The notes under the pieces were generated by a model that ran no database searches, had not been told where the DNA came from, and saw only the letters and a program-made list of their open reading frames with translations. Positions 14,719-47,659 of a DNA stretch of 64,000 nt are shown here, piece by piece (positions within the stretch are counted from its first letter, which is position 1; each line of letters begins with the position of its first letter). The stretch is from an uncultured Planctomycetaceae bacterium (GTDB taxonomy: Bacteria > Planctomycetota > Planctomycetia > Pirellulales > PNKZ01), in contig CAYLYE010000002.1 in assembly GCA_964387325.1 (NCBI GenBank), positions 17,911 to 81,910 on the forward strand, in the 5' to 3' direction. The position numbers and the translations under genes are program-made.

Positions 14719-16404
14719 TCAATCACTTGCGGCTGAGCTTTTGCGAAGCGCTCGACCTGCCCTCGCTCCGGTGTGCTCGCCTCGGTCGAGCACAAGTTGG
14801 CCATTGACGAGCACATACTCGATTCCTTCGCTGTACTGAAACGGTTCGGTGTATGTGGCCCGATCGATCACCTTGTCCGGAGCGAAGACGGTGACGTCGG
14901 CAACCATTCCCGCACGCAGGAGACCTCGATCGGTGAGACCAATTTTCTGGGCGTTGAGCGACGTCATCTTGCGAATCGCATCTTCGAGCGAGAGCAACCC
15001 GCGCTCACGCACGTACTCACCAAGCACCTTGGGAAAGGTACCGAAGTTGCGTGGATGAGGGTTGCCGCGCCGCAGTGCTCCCGTGATGGAGTACGCTGAG
15101 CCGTCGCTGCCGACCGAGCACCAGGGCTGCGCGAGCGCGCGGTTCATGTCCTCTTCGGTATGATGCGCGAAGACCGTACTCACCGAGCCATGCTCCTCGA
15201 TGAGCAATGCGAAGAGTTCATCGAGCGGGTCGCTCGACGGCTTTCCGGCTGTACGAAGCGCCATGACCCGGTCCATCGTGAGCCCTCGGTAGCGGTTCTC
15301 GGCCGCCACGAGCATCCGACTCCAATCACGCCCCACGGCCGTGTAGTGGTTGTACCAACCGTCGATGCCGCCGGTAATGTCCTGCTTCAGACGCGCTCGC
15401 AGGGCGGGATTTTTGAGCCTCTCGAGCATTGCGGCCGTCCCCCCTTCATGCGCCCAGGGGGGAATAATGCTCGACAGATTGTTGTTGCCGCGTGTGTAAG
15501 GATAGACGTTGGCCTGAACGTTCACGCCCCGCTGGCGAGCCGACTCAATCAGAGCAACGATCTCATTCATCCGCCCCCAACATTGCTCGTCGGCAATCTT
15601 CAGATGGATGATGTCGACCGGCAGTCGGGCTCGTTCGCCAATCGCGATCGCCTCGCGGACCGCATCGAAGACCCCCGTTCCTTCGGTCCGAATGTGCGTA
15701 GAGTAGATACCACCTCGCTTGGCGACCACGCGACAAAATCGGACCAGGTCGTCGGTCGTGGCCAGCGAGCCGGGTGGCATCATCAAATAGGTCGAGAGCC
15801 CCAAGGCTCCGTCTCGCATCGCCTCGTCGACGAATTGCTCCATCTGCACGAACTGGGGCTCGGTCGGACGCTCGAACGAATTGCCCATCACGGACTGCCA
15901 GATATTATTGATGCCAACATACGAGGCAACATTGATCGCAATGCCGGCCCGTTCAAGCGATTCAAAGTACGCGCCGAGCGTGGGCCAGCGTGCTTTGGCG
16001 CTCGAGTCGCTCACGCCTTGCGGTCGCGATCCTTGATTAGGTGCTGCCGAATCACCCTCGCCCAGCACGTCGGTCGTCACCCCTTGGCGTATCTTACTCT
16101 GCGCCGCTCCGTCTTCGAGCAGCAGATAGTCGCTGTGCGAATGGATATCGATGAAGCCGGGGGCTACAATCAGACCGCGAGCGTCGATCGTGCGGCGGGC
16201 TTCGCCTTTAGGCAACTGTCCCACGGCAACGATGCGTCCCGCGCGAATCGCCACGTCGCCGTCATACCACGGGTTGCCCGTACCGTCGACGATCCGGCCA
16301 CCCACAATACGCACATCGTCGACCGTCTGCGCGGCAACAAACGACGAAAGCAGTAACAGCACTGAAAGGACACCCAACATACGTGTAACGCGTGAGCCAT
16401 GCAT
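14719..16404 (-). CDS. N-acyl-D-amino-acid deacylase (D-aminoacylase) family amidohydrolase, secreted
   Basis: 561 aa. Signal peptide 'MLGVLSVLLLLSSFVAAQ'. 'GGRIVDGTGNPWYDGDVAIRAGRIVAVG', the metal-binding 'GFIDIHSHSD' and 'SDGSA' are typical of the D-aminoacylase subgroup. Confidence 0.85.
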   Translation of the reverse strand: MHGSRVTRMLGVLSVLLLLSSFVAAQTVDDVRIVGGRIVDGTGNPWYDGDVAIRAGRIVAVGQLPKGEARRTIDARGLIVAPGFIDIHSHSDYLLLEDGAAQSKIRQGVTTDVLGEGDSAAPNQGSRPQGVSDSSAKARWPTLGAYFESLERAGIAINVASYVGINNIWQSVMGNSFERPTEPQFVQMEQFVDEAMRDGALGLSTYLMMPPGSLATTDDLVRFCRVVAKRGGIYSTHIRTEGTGVFDAVREAIAIGERARLPVDIIHLKIADEQCWGRMNEIVALIESARQRGVNVQANVYPYTRGNNNLSSIIPPWAHEGGTAAMLERLKNPALRARLKQDITGGIDGWYNHYTAVGRDWSRMLVAAENRYRGLTMDRVMALRTAGKPSSDPLDELFALLIEEHGSVSTVFAHHTEEDMNRALAQPWCSVGSDGSAYSITGALRRGNPHPRNFGTFPKVLGEYVRERGLLSLEDAIRKMTSLNAQKIGLTDRGLLRAGMVADVTVFAPDKVIDRATYTEPFQYSEGIEYVLVNGQLVLDRGEHTGARAGRALRKSSAASD

Positions 16405-16483: not shown

Positions 16484-16512
16484 TTGCCTTGCGTAAGGTC
16501 AAGTTCTACAAT
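16484..16512 (+). promoter_or_regulatory. candidate sigma70-type promoter (TTGCCT-17-TACAAT)
   Basis: TTGCCT at 16484-16489, a 17-nt spacer, then TACAAT at 16507-16512, 16 nt upstream of ATG 16528. The implied leader is very short. Confidence 0.3.
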
Positions 16513-16527
16513 GAATGACCTGTACTC

Positions 16528-16971
16528 ATGTACGTTGTTAAATTTGCGAGTGCGATCATGTTGCTGGGCCTACGCGTGTTGCTGCTGCTATTGACGGCCA
16601 TCACGCTTATTTTTCCGGCCAAATGGTGCTGCACGCTGGGGAGCGCTGCCCAGGCATGCTCGCAATCCTGTTGCACTCCGGTTGCGGACACTGCGAAAAA
16701 GTCGTGCTGTGCGTTTTCCACGCAGCACAATACGCAAGCCAACTCGACACTCGTCGCGTCCGATCCCTCAGGAACCGGTTCGTGTACCTGCCAGGGACCC
16801 GTCGTCACAACCATCGAACGATTGAACCGCCCGGACACTTGGGCCGTGTTCTCCTTTACAGCGAGTGTGTTGATGGAGCCCGTCGCTGTCGAAGCGCGCG
16901 CTATTCATTCTGGGCAAATATTCTCGCCTGCCAAACCTTCCCAACCACAGTTGTGTTGTTGGCGCTGCTAA
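16528..16971 (+). CDS. hypothetical Cys-rich membrane-anchored protein
   Basis: 147 aa. N-terminal TM segment (AIMLLGLRVLLLLLTAITLIF) followed by clustered cysteines (WCC, CSQSCC, SCC, CTC, C-terminal LCCWRC). No family recognised. Competing shadow ORFs exist in other frames, so confidence is moderate. Confidence 0.45.
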   Translation: MYVVKFASAIMLLGLRVLLLLLTAITLIFPAKWCCTLGSAAQACSQSCCTPVADTAKKSCCAFSTQHNTQANSTLVASDPSGTGSCTCQGPVVTTIERLNRPDTWAVFSFTASVLMEPVAVEARAIHSGQIFSPAKPSQPQLCCWRC

Positions 16972-17121
16972 TGCGCGCTCCTCCGGCGTTTCTTTAGCCG
17001 GCATGGAACGAAGTTGTTGGTTACAAGCGAAACTCGCTGCGCACATTGAGCTGCGCTGACGATGTTTGTGCTGTCGATCGATCATTTTTGTCACGAATTA
17101 ACCTATCGAGGAGTGTGCTTT

Positions 17122-17529
17122 ATGAACCTGAACTTTTTTGCTCGTCGGACATGGTTGCGAAGCGTATTAGGCGTGGCGGGAGCGACCATGTTGCTCGGCC
17201 GAACCATGCAAGCAGCCGAAGGCAAGGTCTCCAACGGCTGTGTCAAAACGTGTCGTGAGTGTGCAGCTACTTGCAAGAACTGCGACATGTGCTGTCGTGC
17301 GGACAACCCCGTCTGCGCCAAGCAGTGCGAGGCCTGTCATCACATGTGCCTGGCCTGTGCCGCTGCGTGCGAGCAGGGCTTGCCCATCGCGTATGACACG
17401 TGCGTGATGTGCGAGAAGATGTGCATAGCTTGCGCGGAACGCTGCGAGAAGTCGGGCAAGGATTGTTGCAAGATGTGCGCCGAGACGTGCCGCAAATGTG
17501 CGGCGGCGTGCAAGGCGGCCCGCAGCTAA
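17122..17529 (+). CDS. four-helix-bundle Cys-rich copper-binding protein (DUF326 / Csp-like), Tat signal
   Basis: The ORF starts at 17062, but ATG 17122 is preceded by GAGGAG (17108-17113). It opens a twin-arginine signal 'MNLNFFARRTWLRSVLGVAGATMLLGRTMQA'. The mature ~105 aa contain 24 Cys in the repeated CxxxC/CxxC spacing typical of DUF326 (e.g. CRECAATCKNC, CEACHHMCLACAAAC, CEKMCIACAERC, CAETCRKCAAAC). Confidence 0.8.
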   Translation: MNLNFFARRTWLRSVLGVAGATMLLGRTMQAAEGKVSNGCVKTCRECAATCKNCDMCCRADNPVCAKQCEACHHMCLACAAACEQGLPIAYDTCVMCEKMCIACAERCEKSGKDCCKMCAETCRKCAAACKAARS

Positions 17530-17549
17530 TCGAGTGCGGTAAACATAGT

Positions 17550-17590
17550 GACCGGCGCTGTTCGTGGAGAGTAGCGCCGGTCGTGTTTGT
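17550..17590 (+). terminator. intrinsic-terminator-like hairpin after the Csp-like gene
   Basis: Perfect 10-bp inverted repeat GACCGGCGCT (17550-17559) / AGCGCCGGTC (17573-17582) with a 13-nt loop, followed by GTGTTTGT. It begins 21 nt after the stop codon. Confidence 0.5.
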
Positions 17591-17792
17591 CGGGAAGAGC
17601 GTAATAACGCAAGAGGAGTTTTTTCCGCCTGAAAAAAACTTCGCAAAACTGACGTTGTCTGTTTTGCGCGTCGTTTGCTAAGTTCCCTCCGGTGGTCGGA
17701 TGGATTCGATCGCTTGGCGAGGGGACCCAGTGCTGAATGGATTCGGCGCTCCCCCTTTTCTCTTTTCCCTGGCGGGGTAGTCAAGTTGCCGG

Positions 17793-17893: not shown

Positions 17894-19030
17894 TCAAAGG
17901 CCCATCACCTCGGCCAGTTTTACGAGGCGGCTTTTTTCGCCCATCGATTTGACCCCCGCGTGAATAATGGCGGTCACTTCGAGAATCTCCTGATGGGGCA
18001 CCGGCTCGACACCCGTCATCACCATCCGCCGAAAGGTGTCCGCCTGATTGAGCATCTGGTAGTGATGCCCATACCAGTAATGATCTTCAATCGCCGGTGA
18101 GTAGGTGTACACCTTCTTGGCAAAGAAGGCGGTCGTCGAAGAGTACCGCGGGCCAGCATCGGGGCGACCGCACCACACTTCGGCCGGCGGCTTGTCGGGA
18201 TACGTAATGAGCAGATGACAGGTATTACCATACTCGTACATGTTGACGGCCTCGACCCCCGCACCGCACAGGGTCATCACCATCCACACCGGATGCTGGC
18301 CATAAATGACCCAGCGGTCGTAGTCATGCGCGCCGGCCTGCGAGGCGAGCACATATTGCAGTGGCCCATACTCGCCCGAGGCTTTCATACGCAACGTTTC
18401 TTCGGTTCCCCATTGATAGCGATAGATGCTCGACGACATCAGAGGCGCTTTGTGCTGACGAGCAAATTCGAGAATCTTGCGTGTGCCGGCCACCGACGCG
18501 CCGATCGGCTTGTCGCAGAACGTGGGGAGCCCGCGCTCCAGGCCCGGAGCACAAAGATCGAAATGATCTTCGCCATAACCGCTGGCGTCGCCCACCCACA
18601 CGGCATCGACCTCTTTAACCATTTGCTCCAGAGATGTGCAGACCTGCACGCCCGGAAACGCCTCGCAGAAAATCTTGGCAATTTCCGGATCTTGTTCGTA
18701 GTAATGTGAAATCACCGTATTGCCAAACGGCCAGCGGTTGAACGTCATCTGCGGGTTGCGTAGGTAGTTGTGAAACAACTGCACCGTGCCGGGATCTTTG
18801 TACTTCTTGATCGCATCGAGATTGCACTCGGGATGAAAATACTGAGCAAAGTGCCACGTGTGACCATTGAGCCGCTGCGCCTTACCTTGAATGCGAGCCG
18901 AGACCACGCCAATCTTCAAAACCTTGTCTGGCTTGGTCGCCGTTTCGGCAGCAGGAGCATTCGGGGCAAGAAATTGCGAACCGGCCGCAAGGGCCGCCGC
19001 AGAGAGTAACTGTCGACGCTGTGGATTCAT
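17894..19030 (-). CDS. Gfo/Idh/MocA-family oxidoreductase, Tat signal
   Basis: The ORF runs to 19069 (TTG). Met14 (ATG 19030-19028) opens 'MNPQRRQLLSAAALAAGSQFLAPNAPAAE' (twin-arginine). 'LKIGVVS' lies at the Rossmann start. Length and overall pattern match periplasmic Gfo/Idh/MocA-like proteins. Confidence 0.75.
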   Translation of the reverse strand: MNPQRRQLLSAAALAAGSQFLAPNAPAAETATKPDKVLKIGVVSARIQGKAQRLNGHTWHFAQYFHPECNLDAIKKYKDPGTVQLFHNYLRNPQMTFNRWPFGNTVISHYYEQDPEIAKIFCEAFPGVQVCTSLEQMVKEVDAVWVGDASGYGEDHFDLCAPGLERGLPTFCDKPIGASVAGTRKILEFARQHKAPLMSSSIYRYQWGTEETLRMKASGEYGPLQYVLASQAGAHDYDRWVIYGQHPVWMVMTLCGAGVEAVNMYEYGNTCHLLITYPDKPPAEVWCGRPDAGPRYSSTTAFFAKKVYTYSPAIEDHYWYGHHYQMLNQADTFRRMVMTGVEPVPHQEILEVTAIIHAGVKSMGEKSRLVKLAEVMGL

Positions 19031-19204
19031 GGGATAAAATCTGCGCGAAAGGGTGAAGTTCAAATGCAAGCATCTAGCAGTCTAACTGCGACCCGCGAGA
19101 GTGACAACAAAATCGATCCATGTGACGCACCGGACTCCGCATGTAGAATTCAACGTCTTGATTCGTAGTCACTCCCTCACCCGCTCGACTCTGGTTGGTT
19201 CACT

Positions 19205-42343: not shown

Positions 42344-43888
42344 ATGCAAGCTGGCTTGATCTCGTTGGCAATCGTGGTGTCGCTCGCCGCTCCCAGTGTG
42401 GAGACCCCGACATTCTCGAAACATGTCGCGCCGCTTGTCTGGAAACATTGCTCCGGCTGTCATCGGCAGGGCGAAGTGGGACCTTTTTCGCTGTTGACCT
42501 ACGAGGACATGGCGAAACGGGCCGATTTTATAGTCGATATCACGTCGAGTCGACGCATGCCTCCGTGGAAGGCGGAGCCGAATTTCGGCAAGTTCCACGA
42601 CGAGCGACGGCTGAGCGATGAGGAGCTAGCGACATTGCGAGCCTGGGCGAAAGCCGGCGCGCCGCGTGGCGACGATCGAGATCTGCCCGAGCCGCCGAAG
42701 TTCACCGAGGGTTGGACGCTCGGCAAGCCGGACCTGATCTTGGAGATGCCCGAGGCATTTACTATCCCGGCCAGTGGTGCCGATATCTATCAATGCTTCG
42801 TGCTGCCGATTCCCACGAGCGAGCATCGAACGGTGGCGGCCGTCGAGTTTCGGCCAGGCAATCGGCGCGTGGTGCATCACGCCTTGCTGTTCCTCGACTC
42901 GAATGGCGCTGCGCGGAAGCGAGACGAGCGCGAGGCGGGACCGGGCTATCGCAGTTTTGGTGGCCCGGGGGTGATCCCCACCGGCGGCTTGGGTGGCTGG
43001 GCACCGGGCGCGATCCCCCGCTTCTTGCCCGAAGGGACCGGTATGTTCCTCCGCAAGGGGAGCGACCTCGTGTTGCAATTGCACTACCATCCGAGTGGCA
43101 AAGTCGAGAGCGACCGGTCGAGCGTTGGCATCTATTTTACCAAGCAGCTCGCTCCGACAATCGTGGGAGGCTTGGCCGTTCGCAGTCGACAACTCAACAT
43201 TCCGCCTGATGAGAAGCACTACCGTGTGACGGCCGAGAGCGAACCACTGCCGGTCGATGTGAACGTACTGGGCGTTGGCCCGCATATGCATTTACTTGGC
43301 CGACAAATGAAGGCCACGGCCCAAAAACCCGACGGCTCGACCGTGCCGCTCGTTTGGATCAAAGACTGGGATTTCAACTGGCAAGGGGGCTATGCCTTTG
43401 CGGAGCGCGTGCGACTCCCCAAGGGAAGTGTCATCCACGTCGAGGCTGAGTACGACAACTCGGCCGACAACCCGCACAACCCGAACTCGCCGCCGAAGCG
43501 GGTCCATTGGGGAGAGCAAACCACCGATGAGATGTGCTTGTTTAGTGTGCAATTGACGACCGACTCGGTAGCCGACCTGCGCAAGGTTGTGACGATGCGA
43601 GGCGCGAGACTGGGGGCCGCTTTGGTCGGCGGCGTCGAAGAGCAGGACCTGCCCGGTGGCGTCGCACTAGACCGCGCCGCACGCATCGAAGTGTTCGTCG
43701 ACGCCCTGCTCGATCGCGGCTTCGTCATCCCCGAACCGGCCCGCGAGTTGCTCAAGTTTTTCGACAAGGATAACGACGGTCGCCTGAGCCGCGAGGAGTA
43801 CGATCAAATCCCCATCGACGTGCGCAATCGCATCCGTGACGAGATCCGTCGTCGGATTCGAGAAGTGGCCGAGCCATCGGGCGGCTGA
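42344..43888 (+). CDS. secreted fusion: cytochrome-c-like CxxCH domain + PHM/DBH-like type II copper monooxygenase + C-terminal EF-hand
   Basis: 514 aa. Signal peptide, then 'FSKHVAPLVWKHCSGCHRQGEVGPFSL..Y' (CxxCH at 42449-42463). Copper ligand contexts: 'RVVHHALLF' (HH), 'LVLQLHYHP' (H), 'GPHMHLLG' (HxH), 'TDEMCLF' (M). EF-hand loop 'DKDNDGRLSREE' (43763-43798). GGAGG lies 5 nt upstream of the ATG. Confidence 0.8.
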   Translation: MQAGLISLAIVVSLAAPSVETPTFSKHVAPLVWKHCSGCHRQGEVGPFSLLTYEDMAKRADFIVDITSSRRMPPWKAEPNFGKFHDERRLSDEELATLRAWAKAGAPRGDDRDLPEPPKFTEGWTLGKPDLILEMPEAFTIPASGADIYQCFVLPIPTSEHRTVAAVEFRPGNRRVVHHALLFLDSNGAARKRDEREAGPGYRSFGGPGVIPTGGLGGWAPGAIPRFLPEGTGMFLRKGSDLVLQLHYHPSGKVESDRSSVGIYFTKQLAPTIVGGLAVRSRQLNIPPDEKHYRVTAESEPLPVDVNVLGVGPHMHLLGRQMKATAQKPDGSTVPLVWIKDWDFNWQGGYAFAERVRLPKGSVIHVEAEYDNSADNPHNPNSPPKRVHWGEQTTDEMCLFSVQLTTDSVADLRKVVTMRGARLGAALVGGVEEQDLPGGVALDRAARIEVFVDALLDRGFVIPEPARELLKFFDKDNDGRLSREEYDQIPIDVRNRIRDEIRRRIREVAEPSGG

Positions 43889-46540: not shown

Positions 46541-47659
46541 CTAGCTCGGCCCCTGTGGCTTCGGTAACCACTTGCAAAGCAAAATGCCGCCGAAGTACAA
46601 GAACGTCAGCGGCACAGCCATCAGGAAAATGCTGTACGGGTCGGCCGGGGTCAAAATAGCCGAGATGATAAAGATCACCAGGATCGACACTCGCCAATTC
46701 GACATGTAATGCTGCACCGTAAAGATGCCGATCCGCTCGATAAACAACATCACCAACGGTAGCTGAAAGCTGACACCGAACCCGAGCGGCATGAGCAGCA
46801 CGAAGCTCAACCACTCGCTAATACGTGGGTCGGGGTTAAAACCCATGTCGCGATTGAACTTGAACAAGAATTCCAATACCGGAGCGAACACGAACAAATA
46901 GGCCGTCCCGGCGCCGAGCAAGAACAACCCCAAGCTCACAGGCAGAAACACGTAAATGTACTTACGTTCGTGCGGATACAACCCCGCCGCGACAAAGGTC
47001 CAAATCTGAAAAAAGACCCAGGGACTCGACAGGACGATACCAAACACGAGCGACGCCTTGAGCCAAATCATGAACGCTTCGGTGACGTTCAGCGTGTTCA
47101 AACTGGTTCGCGGATCTTTGTCCGACGGTTGCCACAGCAGCATCGGCACTAAGTGATCGCGCAGATGTGCGATCTTCGATAGAGTGTCGATCGATCCCGT
47201 CTCGGCTTTAGTTTCGGACTCGGCTTTTGACTCCGCATCTGCTTGTTTTTCAGGCTCGCTGGCCTTGGCCGGGGCGTTGCTCGGTTCCGGAGCCGTGAGA
47301 GTCGCGGGGTGAATATACCGGACATCGAAAATCAACTCGGGTATGCCCAGTTCCTTGTCCCCCTGGGCAATCTTTTTGACCTCTTCGAGCGTGTAAGGAG
47401 GCTCACGGCCAACACGCTTCTCGTCTTCGATCCAGACTGCGTAGTCGGTCTCGGCTTGCAGTTTATAGTAGTCCTTGAGCGCATGGATGATGGGAGCCGA
47501 GATGAATTCAACGACCCGATCGCCGTAATAGAGCCCAAAACCGGTGGCCAACACCAAGCCGATCACCGCACGAAATAAACACACCCGCAACTCTTCGAGA
47601 TGCTCGCCGAAGGTCATCGTCGTGTCTTGGAACAGATCGTCGTTGGGTTGCTTGGCCAT
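46541..47659 (-). CDS. tatC: twin-arginine translocase subunit TatC with an enlarged first periplasmic loop
   Basis: 372 aa. 'MTFGEHLEELRVCLFRAVIGLVLA' (TatC N-terminus), 'SAPII', 'PWVFFQIWTFVAAGLYPHERK', 'FGVSFQLPLVMLFIERIGI' and 'ILTPADPYS'. About 120 extra residues sit between TM1 and TM2. Confidence 0.9.
   Translation of the reverse strand: MAKQPNDDLFQDTTMTFGEHLEELRVCLFRAVIGLVLATGFGLYYGDRVVEFISAPIIHALKDYYKLQAETDYAVWIEDEKRVGREPPYTLEEVKKIAQGDKELGIPELIFDVRYIHPATLTAPEPSNAPAKASEPEKQADAESKAESETKAETGSIDTLSKIAHLRDHLVPMLLWQPSDKDPRTSLNTLNVTEAFMIWLKASLVFGIVLSSPWVFFQIWTFVAAGLYPHERKYIYVFLPVSLGLFLLGAGTAYLFVFAPVLEFLFKFNRDMGFNPDPRISEWLSFVLLMPLGFGVSFQLPLVMLFIERIGIFTVQHYMSNWRVSILVIFIISAILTPADPYSIFLMAVPLTFLYFGGILLCKWLPKPQGPS

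Follow-up and report, generated by a model that had tools for sequence, protein, structure and literature searches.

A hidden Cys-rich partner gene linked to a twin-arginine-exported, Csp3-like bundle protein in Planctomycetes

Introduction

From where would a copper storage protein (Csp) that is exported to the periplasm receive its metal, and might a second protein serve it there? The question is raised by two neighboring open reading frames (ORFs) in a stretch of 64,000 nucleotides (nt) from an uncultured Planctomycetaceae bacterium (assembly GCA_964387325.1, contig CAYLYE010000002.1, positions 17,911 to 81,910 of the forward strand), referred to below, at its full length, as the window. 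Both ORFs, 16528-16971 and 17122-17529, are on the plus strand and lie 150 nt apart. The product of the first (147 aa) is here termed the partner, and that of the second (135 aa) is termed Csp.

Copper storage proteins were discovered in 2015, and the cell envelope in the phylum Planctomycetes is unusual. Csps bind Cu(I) between the thiolate pairs of CxxxC motifs, the ions entering at the solvent-exposed end of the bundle (PMC5171941). The exported Csp1 type likely stores or buffers Cu(I) in the periplasm (PMC12510493, PMC7558416). NGO1701, a Csp exported by the twin-arginine translocation (Tat) pathway, buffers periplasmic copper and protects Neisseria gonorrhoeae; where its Cu(I) comes from is left open by the authors, the choices being cytosolic loading before Tat transport or, afterwards, CopA efflux or a reductase (PMC12510493). 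The same work describes metal entry and exit as unresolved for exported Csps (PMC12510493), and the gene pair analyzed here gives a genetically defined candidate for that step.

Results and discussion

The partner and Csp genes form one unit

In 15 of 15 distinct loci with enough flanking sequence, the partner gene lies directly upstream of a gene for a Tat-type Csp, on the same strand. When the loci are approached from Csp, the partner accompanies each Tat-type relative that has 23-26 Cys and sufficient upstream flank (the window, L001-L003, L005-L007, L013 and L022); when they are approached from the partner, all six loci examined (P0101, P0105-P0109) have a Tat-type Csp gene 113-258 nt downstream on the same strand. 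Loci L020 and L021, the upstream flanks of which are too short, stand outside the count; a possible partner C-terminus, ...LNCVWRN-stop, is discernible in L020. An earlier reading made from the letters alone (the sequence-only reading) had treated the two ORFs as one module and had suggested asking whether the upstream ORF co-occurs with DUF326-type genes in other genomes. Such co-occurrence is present in every locus with enough flank for the partner-type Tat-Csp clade, and that the two genes form one unit is strongly supported by the conservation of the pair and by purifying selection on the partner.

The selection was measured on the same seven genome pairs for both genes (Nei-Gojobori). The ratio of nonsynonymous to synonymous substitution rates (dN/dS) is 0.20-0.47 for the partner versus 0.03-0.13 for Csp. 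Thus, the partner ORF is coding, but it evolves 4-5 times faster than Csp. It is a real gene under purifying selection.

A single-sequence search with the partner returned no homologue. The family was recovered with a profile built from seven uncalled ORFs of related loci, which retrieved 10 called proteins among 5.8 billion with E = 1e-16 to 1e-33; all are labelled "hypothetical" and lack a Pfam domain, and one is from a Pirellula metagenome-assembled genome (MAG). On the Csp side, an exhaustive phmmer search of 1.84 billion representatives yielded 98 matches at E <= 1e-3, 19 of them at E <= 1e-10, and metagenomes were scanned for Csp loci with a 6-sequence alignment. The closest related locus is that of an uncultured Planctomycetaceae MAG, with a Csp 86% identical to the window Csp; an exact-sequence database look-up of the window Csp gave no record. 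In the locus of P0003 (Csp 58% identical), an uncalled ORF of 144 aa with the partner architecture is located just upstream. Uncalled partner ORFs are also found in both Planctomycetaceae MAG loci and in the metagenome loci L005, L006 and L007. The partner is present upstream in L022 (Csp 44% identical) as well, and a diverged form, with WCQ for WCC and the ending LLCCWRN, is encoded in L013.

The partner is absent beside the Sec-type relatives of L008 and L011/L012, beside the cytosolic Csp3-like gene of L004, and beside the more distant Tat-Csp of L023. The last (P0037, 21 Cys; L023 2114-2899) is preceded, at 12 nt, by a regulator gene of the ArsR/HTH_5 family and sits next to a phage-type integrase, a context that is probably metal-regulated and mobile.

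The genes surrounding the pair vary by clade: an amidohydrolase and a Gfo/Idh/MocA oxidoreductase in the window and L002, HAD and 2-Hacid_dh genes in L001, L014 and L019, and a reverse transcriptase in L025. The pair therefore behaves, and moves, as a mobile two-gene unit. It is self-contained and is known so far from Planctomycetes only.

In one clade, a gene for a conserved membrane protein of ~450 aa without a Pfam match accompanies the pair (L001 2184-3542, L024 737-2095, L019 287-1636). It is directly upstream of the pair in L001 and L024, an opposite-strand YNCE/Lactonase gene lies between in L019, and it is absent from the window and the other clades. Public gene calls near the pair are often wrong (L001 4001-4672, L003 3659-4390, L015 1809-2198 on the minus strand, and P0003-P0009): the Csp ORF is extended by 40-90 codons upstream, sometimes swallowing the spacer, the partner is left uncalled, and in L015 a spurious gene is placed opposite Csp.

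The partner protein

The partner gene (16528-16971, plus strand) encodes a small Cys-rich protein, presumably secreted or membrane-tethered. The more likely start is ATG 16558 (137 aa, MLLGLR...) rather than ATG 16528 (147 aa), because it agrees with the N-termini of the orthologues and with a GAGG-like motif in L002. The 147-aa ORF ending in LCCWRC is present just as the sequence-only reading described it. The seven CC/CxC clusters claimed for it reduce to five or six, the 12 Cys being distributed over four CC pairs, one CxC, and the single C44 and C147, with the stop codon following LCCWRC.

Family members share a signal-like N-terminus, the motif PPxWCC, further CC pairs, a CxC(C) and a C-terminal LCxWxC-stop. 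Overall identity is 17-46% (including a 13-locus alignment) around fixed Cys, Pro and Trp positions. Among 14 sequences, P30, C34, C35, C60, C61, C88, C143 and C147 are invariant, and C49, C86 and W145 nearly so. The stop codon directly follows the last Cys of LCxWxC, except in L013, where an Asn is found.

The N-terminus comprises a short basic n-region (M-x-x-L-R), 12-16 hydrophobic residues, a Pro-Pro break and [WF]CC. For a membrane-spanning helix of 20 residues, the hydrophobic segment that had been read as one transmembrane helix is short; a Sec signal peptide or signal anchor suits its length better. The positive charge on its N-terminal side suggests that the Cys-rich part faces the periplasm. 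There is no conserved lipobox or clear AxA site in the partner family. A lipoprotein was considered and rejected, as a lipobox is lacking and the first Cys is preceded by W, F or A.

Comparison of the partner with Pfam and NCBIfam gave no match, and neither did comparison of its profile with PDB sequences at E <= 10. Alignment with the Csp profile using hhalign gave a probability of 0.5%. With both the PDB and the Csp-profile comparisons negative, the notion of a degenerate Csp copy was discarded. A precursor of a peptide made by the ribosome and modified after translation (RiPP) was also rejected, no modifying enzymes being linked, and the TMcin RiPP lead (PMC13252029) was set aside because it concerns DUF3267, not DUF326.

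Cysteine core, fold and family of Csp

The mature Csp (17218-17529, plus strand; ~103-104 aa) is a four-helix bundle according to its predicted model, Foldseek matches and family profile. All 24 of its Cys fall in residues 40-130, and the count agrees with the 24 Cys in about 105 mature residues reported from the sequence alone, the mature length being ~104. The Cys spacing over four segments is 4,3,4,3,3,1 / 4,3,4,3,4 / 3,4,3,4 / 1,3,4,3,4, so that 22 of the 24 follow the 3/4 spacing (CxxxC/CxxC, heptad a/d) on four helices. Fourteen Cys columns are invariant across 17 Csp relatives.

The AlphaFold2 (AF2) model, computed with a 17-sequence alignment, predicts helices at residues 41-58, 63-84, 90-111 and 114-133, with a predicted local distance difference test (pLDDT) score of ~98 over the bundle. 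A Foldseek search of the PDB with this model returned Csp family members (Csp3, Ccsp, Csp1 and structural-genomics relatives) as all of its best 40 matches. The best was Cu(I)-BsCsp3 with a template modelling (TM) score of 0.85-0.91 (target TM-score 0.85) and a root-mean-square deviation of 1.3 Å. Against solved Csps, the family profile gave E = 2.5e-13 for Csp3 and E = 3.7e-7 for Csp1, and a single-sequence phmmer search with the window Csp gave E = 0.0016 for Csp3.

A Pfam scan of the window Csp alone showed no DUF326/PF03860 match at E <= 1. A MerC match (E = 0.69), which sits in the signal peptide, was dismissed as noise. An NCBIfam scan of the window Csp, including the Csp1 model TIGR04401 TAT_Cys_rich, likewise gave no match at E <= 1. 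Among the 17 relatives, weak matches were obtained to PF03860 in eight and to TIGR04401 in six (best E = 2.4e-4), and PF03860 is a precomputed annotation on close Csp homologues. Together, the profile matches, the fold prediction and the fold search provide good support for membership of the window protein in the Csp/DUF326 superfamily. The proposed Csp-like DUF326 four-helix protein is therefore upheld by profile and fold, but not by the single sequence, which matches neither the DUF326 nor the Csp1 model. By both sequence and fold it is nearer to the cytosolic Csp3 than to Csp1, and as an exported Csp it is typical of neither.

The nearest Csp relatives have twin-arginine (RR) signals and 23-26 Cys; the remaining ones have Sec-like signals or none, and 8-24 Cys (median 19). 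Sec-type signal peptides without RR are found on 32 of the 99 retrieved Csp relatives (P0010-P0017, P0001, P0002; loci L008-L012). Exported Csps are described in the cited literature as Tat substrates only (PMC12510493, PMC7558416). In another relative, P0036 (211 aa), a hydrophobic N-terminus and a Cys-rich low-complexity stretch that includes SCC are fused ahead of the Csp domain, and this protein may be a fusion counterpart of the partner-plus-Csp layout.

The bundle opening

In BsCsp3, His84, His86 and His88 surround the bundle opening at α3-loop-α4 (PMC5171941). They align with S111, K113 and C115 of the window Csp. The α1-α2 loop, which carries His33 and His34 in BsCsp3, is 5 residues shorter, and these two His are lost as well. 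The two loops at the predicted opening, RADNP and KSGKD, contain no His and no Met, and the vicinal pairs C57C58 and C115C116 are both placed there by the model. With the opening His replaced and the CC pairs at the same end, the predicted entrance is thiolate-only. A further feature is an HHM patch (residues 73-75) on the non-core face of helix 2, which is kept across the exported relatives; BsCsp3 has A-D-I at this position.

Signal peptide and export

The N-terminus of Csp reads MNLNFFA-RR-TWLR-SVLGVAGATMLLG-RTMQA/AEGK, and its signal peptide (17122-17217, plus strand) would comprise residues 1-31 or 1-32, cleavage being predicted to follow MQA (marked by the slash) or QAA. An ARRTWL twin-arginine motif is followed by an h-region of 13 uncharged residues, then by a basic c-region and a cleavage site that is AxA-like. 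Close relatives keep R8 and R9 without exception, and every partner-linked Csp has an RR signal. Profile hidden Markov models of Tat signals gave no significant match to the window Csp or its relatives; by motif and conservation, this appears to be a textbook Tat signal, in agreement with the twin-arginine signal noted by the sequence-only reading. A tatC gene (46541-47659, minus strand; TatC translocase, PF00902, E = 2.4e-59) is located in the same window, so that the pathway on which the Csp signal depends is available to the organism. Export outside methanotrophs had been regarded as poorly explained. It is rare, but a precedent has already been characterized in NGO1701 of N. gonorrhoeae, which binds ~15 Cu(I) and protects against copper (PMC12510493).

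Expression signals and the spacer

A putative sigma-70-like promoter element, TTGCCT-17-TACAAT, with 9 of 12 consensus matches, precedes the partner gene at 16484-16512 (plus strand), as the sequence-only reading had noted. Of the 10 loci that have upstream flank, 8 carry an equivalent of the form TTGnnn-17-TAnnnT, with a spacer of always 17 nt, 14-34 nt before the partner start. The partner-Csp spacers have no such element, save for one weak match in L002. This distribution of promoter-like elements suggests that the two genes share one transcript, with a long, structured spacer between them.

The spacer is 113-293 nt long in all loci, and 150 nt in the window (16972-17121, plus strand), where it contains a post-stop hairpin (CCGGC 16983-16987 / GCCGG 16997-17001) and a GAGGAG ribosome-binding site (17108-17113). 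The window spacer folds with z = -2.7, and the hairpin after the partner stop is common to L002. A Shine-Dalgarno-like motif was seen before the Csp start in all loci inspected and before the partner start in most. Rfam families were searched in the pair region and none matched. Spacer hairpins are conserved within one clade (L006 560-641, L015 1631-1712, L017 899-980) and within a second (L001 4146-4258, L014 5430-5542, L019 3436-3549), with too little covariation in either to call an RNA element; one clade-conserved hairpin is terminator-like and stands immediately before the Csp ribosome-binding site. Conservation seems to be higher in the spacers than in the variable part of the partner.

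The pair is followed by a terminator-like hairpin (17537-17592, plus strand; core 14-bp stem 17550-17563 / 17569-17582) with a folding free energy of -33.5 kcal/mol and z = -5.2, and none of 200 shuffled sequences folds as well. The clean hairpin terminator proposed earlier is borne out as to the strong hairpin at the module end, but its U-tract is weak (GUGUUUGUCGG) and a simple terminator scan did not list it.

Genes flanking the pair

In the window, a divergent amidohydrolase gene (14719-16404, minus strand) borders the pair on its 5' side, and the next gene after the pair (17894-19069, minus strand) is convergent and encodes a Gfo/Idh/MocA oxidoreductase. The product of the latter has its own N-terminal twin-arginine-type signal, MNPQRRQLLSAAALAAG..., an arrangement often met in Planctomycetes. 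The window is rich in DUF1501, DUF1549/DUF1553, PSCyt and PSD families. An antisense ORF (17167-17784, minus strand; 205 aa, Ala/Arg/Leu-rich) overlies the Csp gene; instead of being a gene itself, it probably arises as an artefact from the periodic TGC/GCN codon pattern.

A proposed thiolate relay and its alternatives

From the fold, the family membership, the conserved RR signal, the reality of the partner gene and its strict linkage to Csp, a model may be drawn in which the metal, the topology of the partner, co-transcription of the two genes and a relay role are proposed. Csp would be exported already folded via Tat, its core lined end to end by the 22 a/d Cys, with the two extra Cys making the vicinal CC pairs at the solvent-exposed opening. 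The partner (~130-145 aa) would enter the Sec pathway through its short N-terminal signal or anchor and would exist as a largely disordered extracytoplasmic chain with four to five invariant Cys clusters, of which the first, PPxWCC, would be right at the surface of the membrane, followed by CC, CC, CxC(C) and a terminal CxxxC. In the periplasm, the bundle may store or buffer a thiol-loving metal, with > 20 ions to each monomer; the metal is most probably Cu(I). At the membrane, the partner may collect this metal, such as Cu(I) released by an efflux pump, and hand it by Cys-to-Cys ligand exchange to the all-thiolate bundle mouth, or retrieve it from there; the spacing of its C-terminal CxxxC is the same as that of the Csp ligands. 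We assign this reading as a whole, a periplasmic store for a thiol-loving metal with the partner as thiolate relay, a probability of about 0.5. The periplasmic copper buffering or delivery unit suggested by the sequence-only reading is consequently retained as to the paired unit and the exported Csp fold, whereas the metal and the delivery role are proposals.

Several observations weigh against the model. The AF2 model of the partner is confident only for an N-terminal helix (residues 3-28), with pLDDT < 50 after residue 37; the low values are compatible with a metallothionein-like chain that becomes ordered on metal, and equally with a thin alignment. The Sec-type relatives in L008, L011 and L012 share the CC pairs yet have no partner, and so having CC pairs at the mouth does not in itself call for one. 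In an oxidizing periplasm, many free Cys could form disulfides instead of binding metal. The hairpin-bearing spacer of 113-293 nt could serve separate expression of the two genes. Copper genes (CopA, CusF, multicopper oxidase, Sco, PCuAC) were looked for next to the pair and none adjoins it in any locus. A DUF326 protein has also been linked to cadmium tolerance (PMC6727835), and thus the metal need not be copper.

The last point leads to the alternative that survives best, which is possible without being favored: the architecture would be the same, and the ligand another soft metal (Cd, Hg, Zn or Ag), or the pair would act as a periplasmic thiol/redox buffer. Vicinal CC pairs are typical of Hg(II) relay proteins such as MerT and MerF. 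In a cadmium-tolerant Enterobacter strain, the level of a DUF326 protein was 220-fold higher (PMC6727835), the distant Tat-Csp in L023 is directly behind an ArsR/HTH_5-type metal regulator, and the lack of adjoining copper genes points the same way. Against these stand the binding of Cu(I) by all characterized Csps through two-thiolate CxxxC coordination (PMC5171941, PMC12510493), a spacing that is kept here, and the absence of mer, czc or cad genes nearby.

An unlikely alternative concerns the place of loading: Csp would take up its Cu(I) while still in the reducing cytoplasm and be carried out by Tat in loaded form, as a means of detoxification by cargo export, and the partner would receive or unload the metal outside or anchor Csp at the membrane. 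Tat exports folded, cofactor-loaded proteins. The strict conservation of RR in the partner-linked Csps, with Sec-type relatives lacking the partner, is consistent with this course, and cytosolic loading before Tat has been raised as an open possibility (PMC12510493). However, a linked cytosolic donor such as CopZ is missing, and the partner appears to be extracytoplasmic and hence of no help in the cytosol.

Still less probable is the reverse assignment of roles, in which the partner is a disulfide-rich secreted peptide (signalling, antimicrobial or structural) and Csp serves it, for example as an immunity or folding factor. The signal-like N-terminus and the 4-5-fold faster evolution of the partner, with only Cys, Pro and Trp fixed, resemble those of secreted Cys-knot-like peptides. 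However, vicinal CC pairs make poor disulfide partners, the pair has no linked modification enzyme, protease or exporter, and the more conserved of the two proteins is Csp, which comes from a metal-binding family.

Two further readings are very improbable. That the unit supplies copper to a putative copper monooxygenase at 42344-43888 (plus strand), as the sequence-only reading had imagined, leans on a Cu2_monoox_C match (E = 4.5e-6), but at 26.7 bits versus a cut-off of 23 this is marginal, the genes are 25 kb apart with many unrelated genes between, and the neighbors of the pair differ in other genomes; the claim is therefore dropped. The match itself covers only the C-terminal domain of copper type II monooxygenases, and the identity of the product as a copper enzyme is uncertain. 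A spurious upstream ORF, with only the Csp gene real, would agree with the empty single-sequence search, the missing Pfam/NCBIfam matches and the lack of gene calls in several assemblies, but is refuted by the frame, length, Cys and stop positions kept in 15 loci, dN/dS < 0.5, the 10 called homologues at E = 1e-16 to 1e-33 and the Shine-Dalgarno-like motif in most loci.

Within the thiolate-relay model, the most specific claim is that the partner is the first dedicated partner of a Csp, a disordered, membrane-proximal poly-thiolate relay that loads or unloads the mouth of a Tat-exported Csp. We offer it tentatively, as clearly less probable than the model as a whole. If true, the relay would answer, for the exported Csps of the partner-linked clade, the question of the source of their Cu(I), and the loading question can be tested with two small recombinant proteins.

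Comparison with known systems

The Csp family and Tat-exported Csps are already known (PMC7558416, PMC12510493), and the fold and probable chemistry of the window protein were to be expected. The exported Csp3-like form, which has 23-26 Cys and a mouth made of thiolates, adds a new variant to the family. The hidden, conserved partner is the new element: a small new family strictly tied to one exported-Csp clade and mostly missed by gene callers. The family and its strict linkage to Csp appear to be undescribed, there being no family assignment and only "hypothetical" labels, and a literature search combining Planctomycetes with "copper storage protein" returned no paper.

Csp3 is the best match by sequence and fold, and the window Csp shares with it the four-helix bundle, the a/d Cys core with CxxxC and the high Cys count. 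The window Csp has 24 Cys versus 18-19 in Csp3s, and characterized Csps range from 13 in MtCsp1 and 15 in NGO1701 to 18-19 in Csp3s (PMC5171941, PMC12510493). Csp3s are cytosolic and have no signal peptide, whereas the window Csp has a conserved RR signal. The window Csp lacks the His of the Csp3 opening, and the HHM patch on helix 2 and the obligatory partner gene are features of its own.

With the Csp1/Csp2 type (Methylosinus trichosporium Csp1, 5fjd/5fje; NGO1701; TIGR04401), the window protein has in common the Tat signal, the Cys-lined four-helix bundle and the presumed periplasmic location. It differs from this type in the weaker match (E = 3.7e-7) and in falling below the TIGR04401 threshold. 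The mouth of MtCsp1 is formed by His36, Met40, Met43 and Met48 (PMC5171941); the corresponding end of the window Csp has CC pairs instead. No linked partner gene is described for Csp1 or NGO1701 in the cited literature (PMC5171941, PMC12510493, PMC7558416).

The partner, for its part, resembles metallothionein-like and CC-pair relay proteins (MymT and SmtA; MerT and MerF; CopG with its CxCC) in being small, Cys-rich and predicted to be disordered without metal. MerT has a CC pair at the boundary between membrane and periplasm, which is similar to the predicted place of one vicinal CC pair of the partner. By sequence and by profile, it matches no known family, and membership in those of MymT, SmtA, MerT, MerF or CopG is not claimed. 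The partner is set apart by its single N-terminal hydrophobic segment, the unique PPxWCC motif and the C-terminal LCxWxC-stop.

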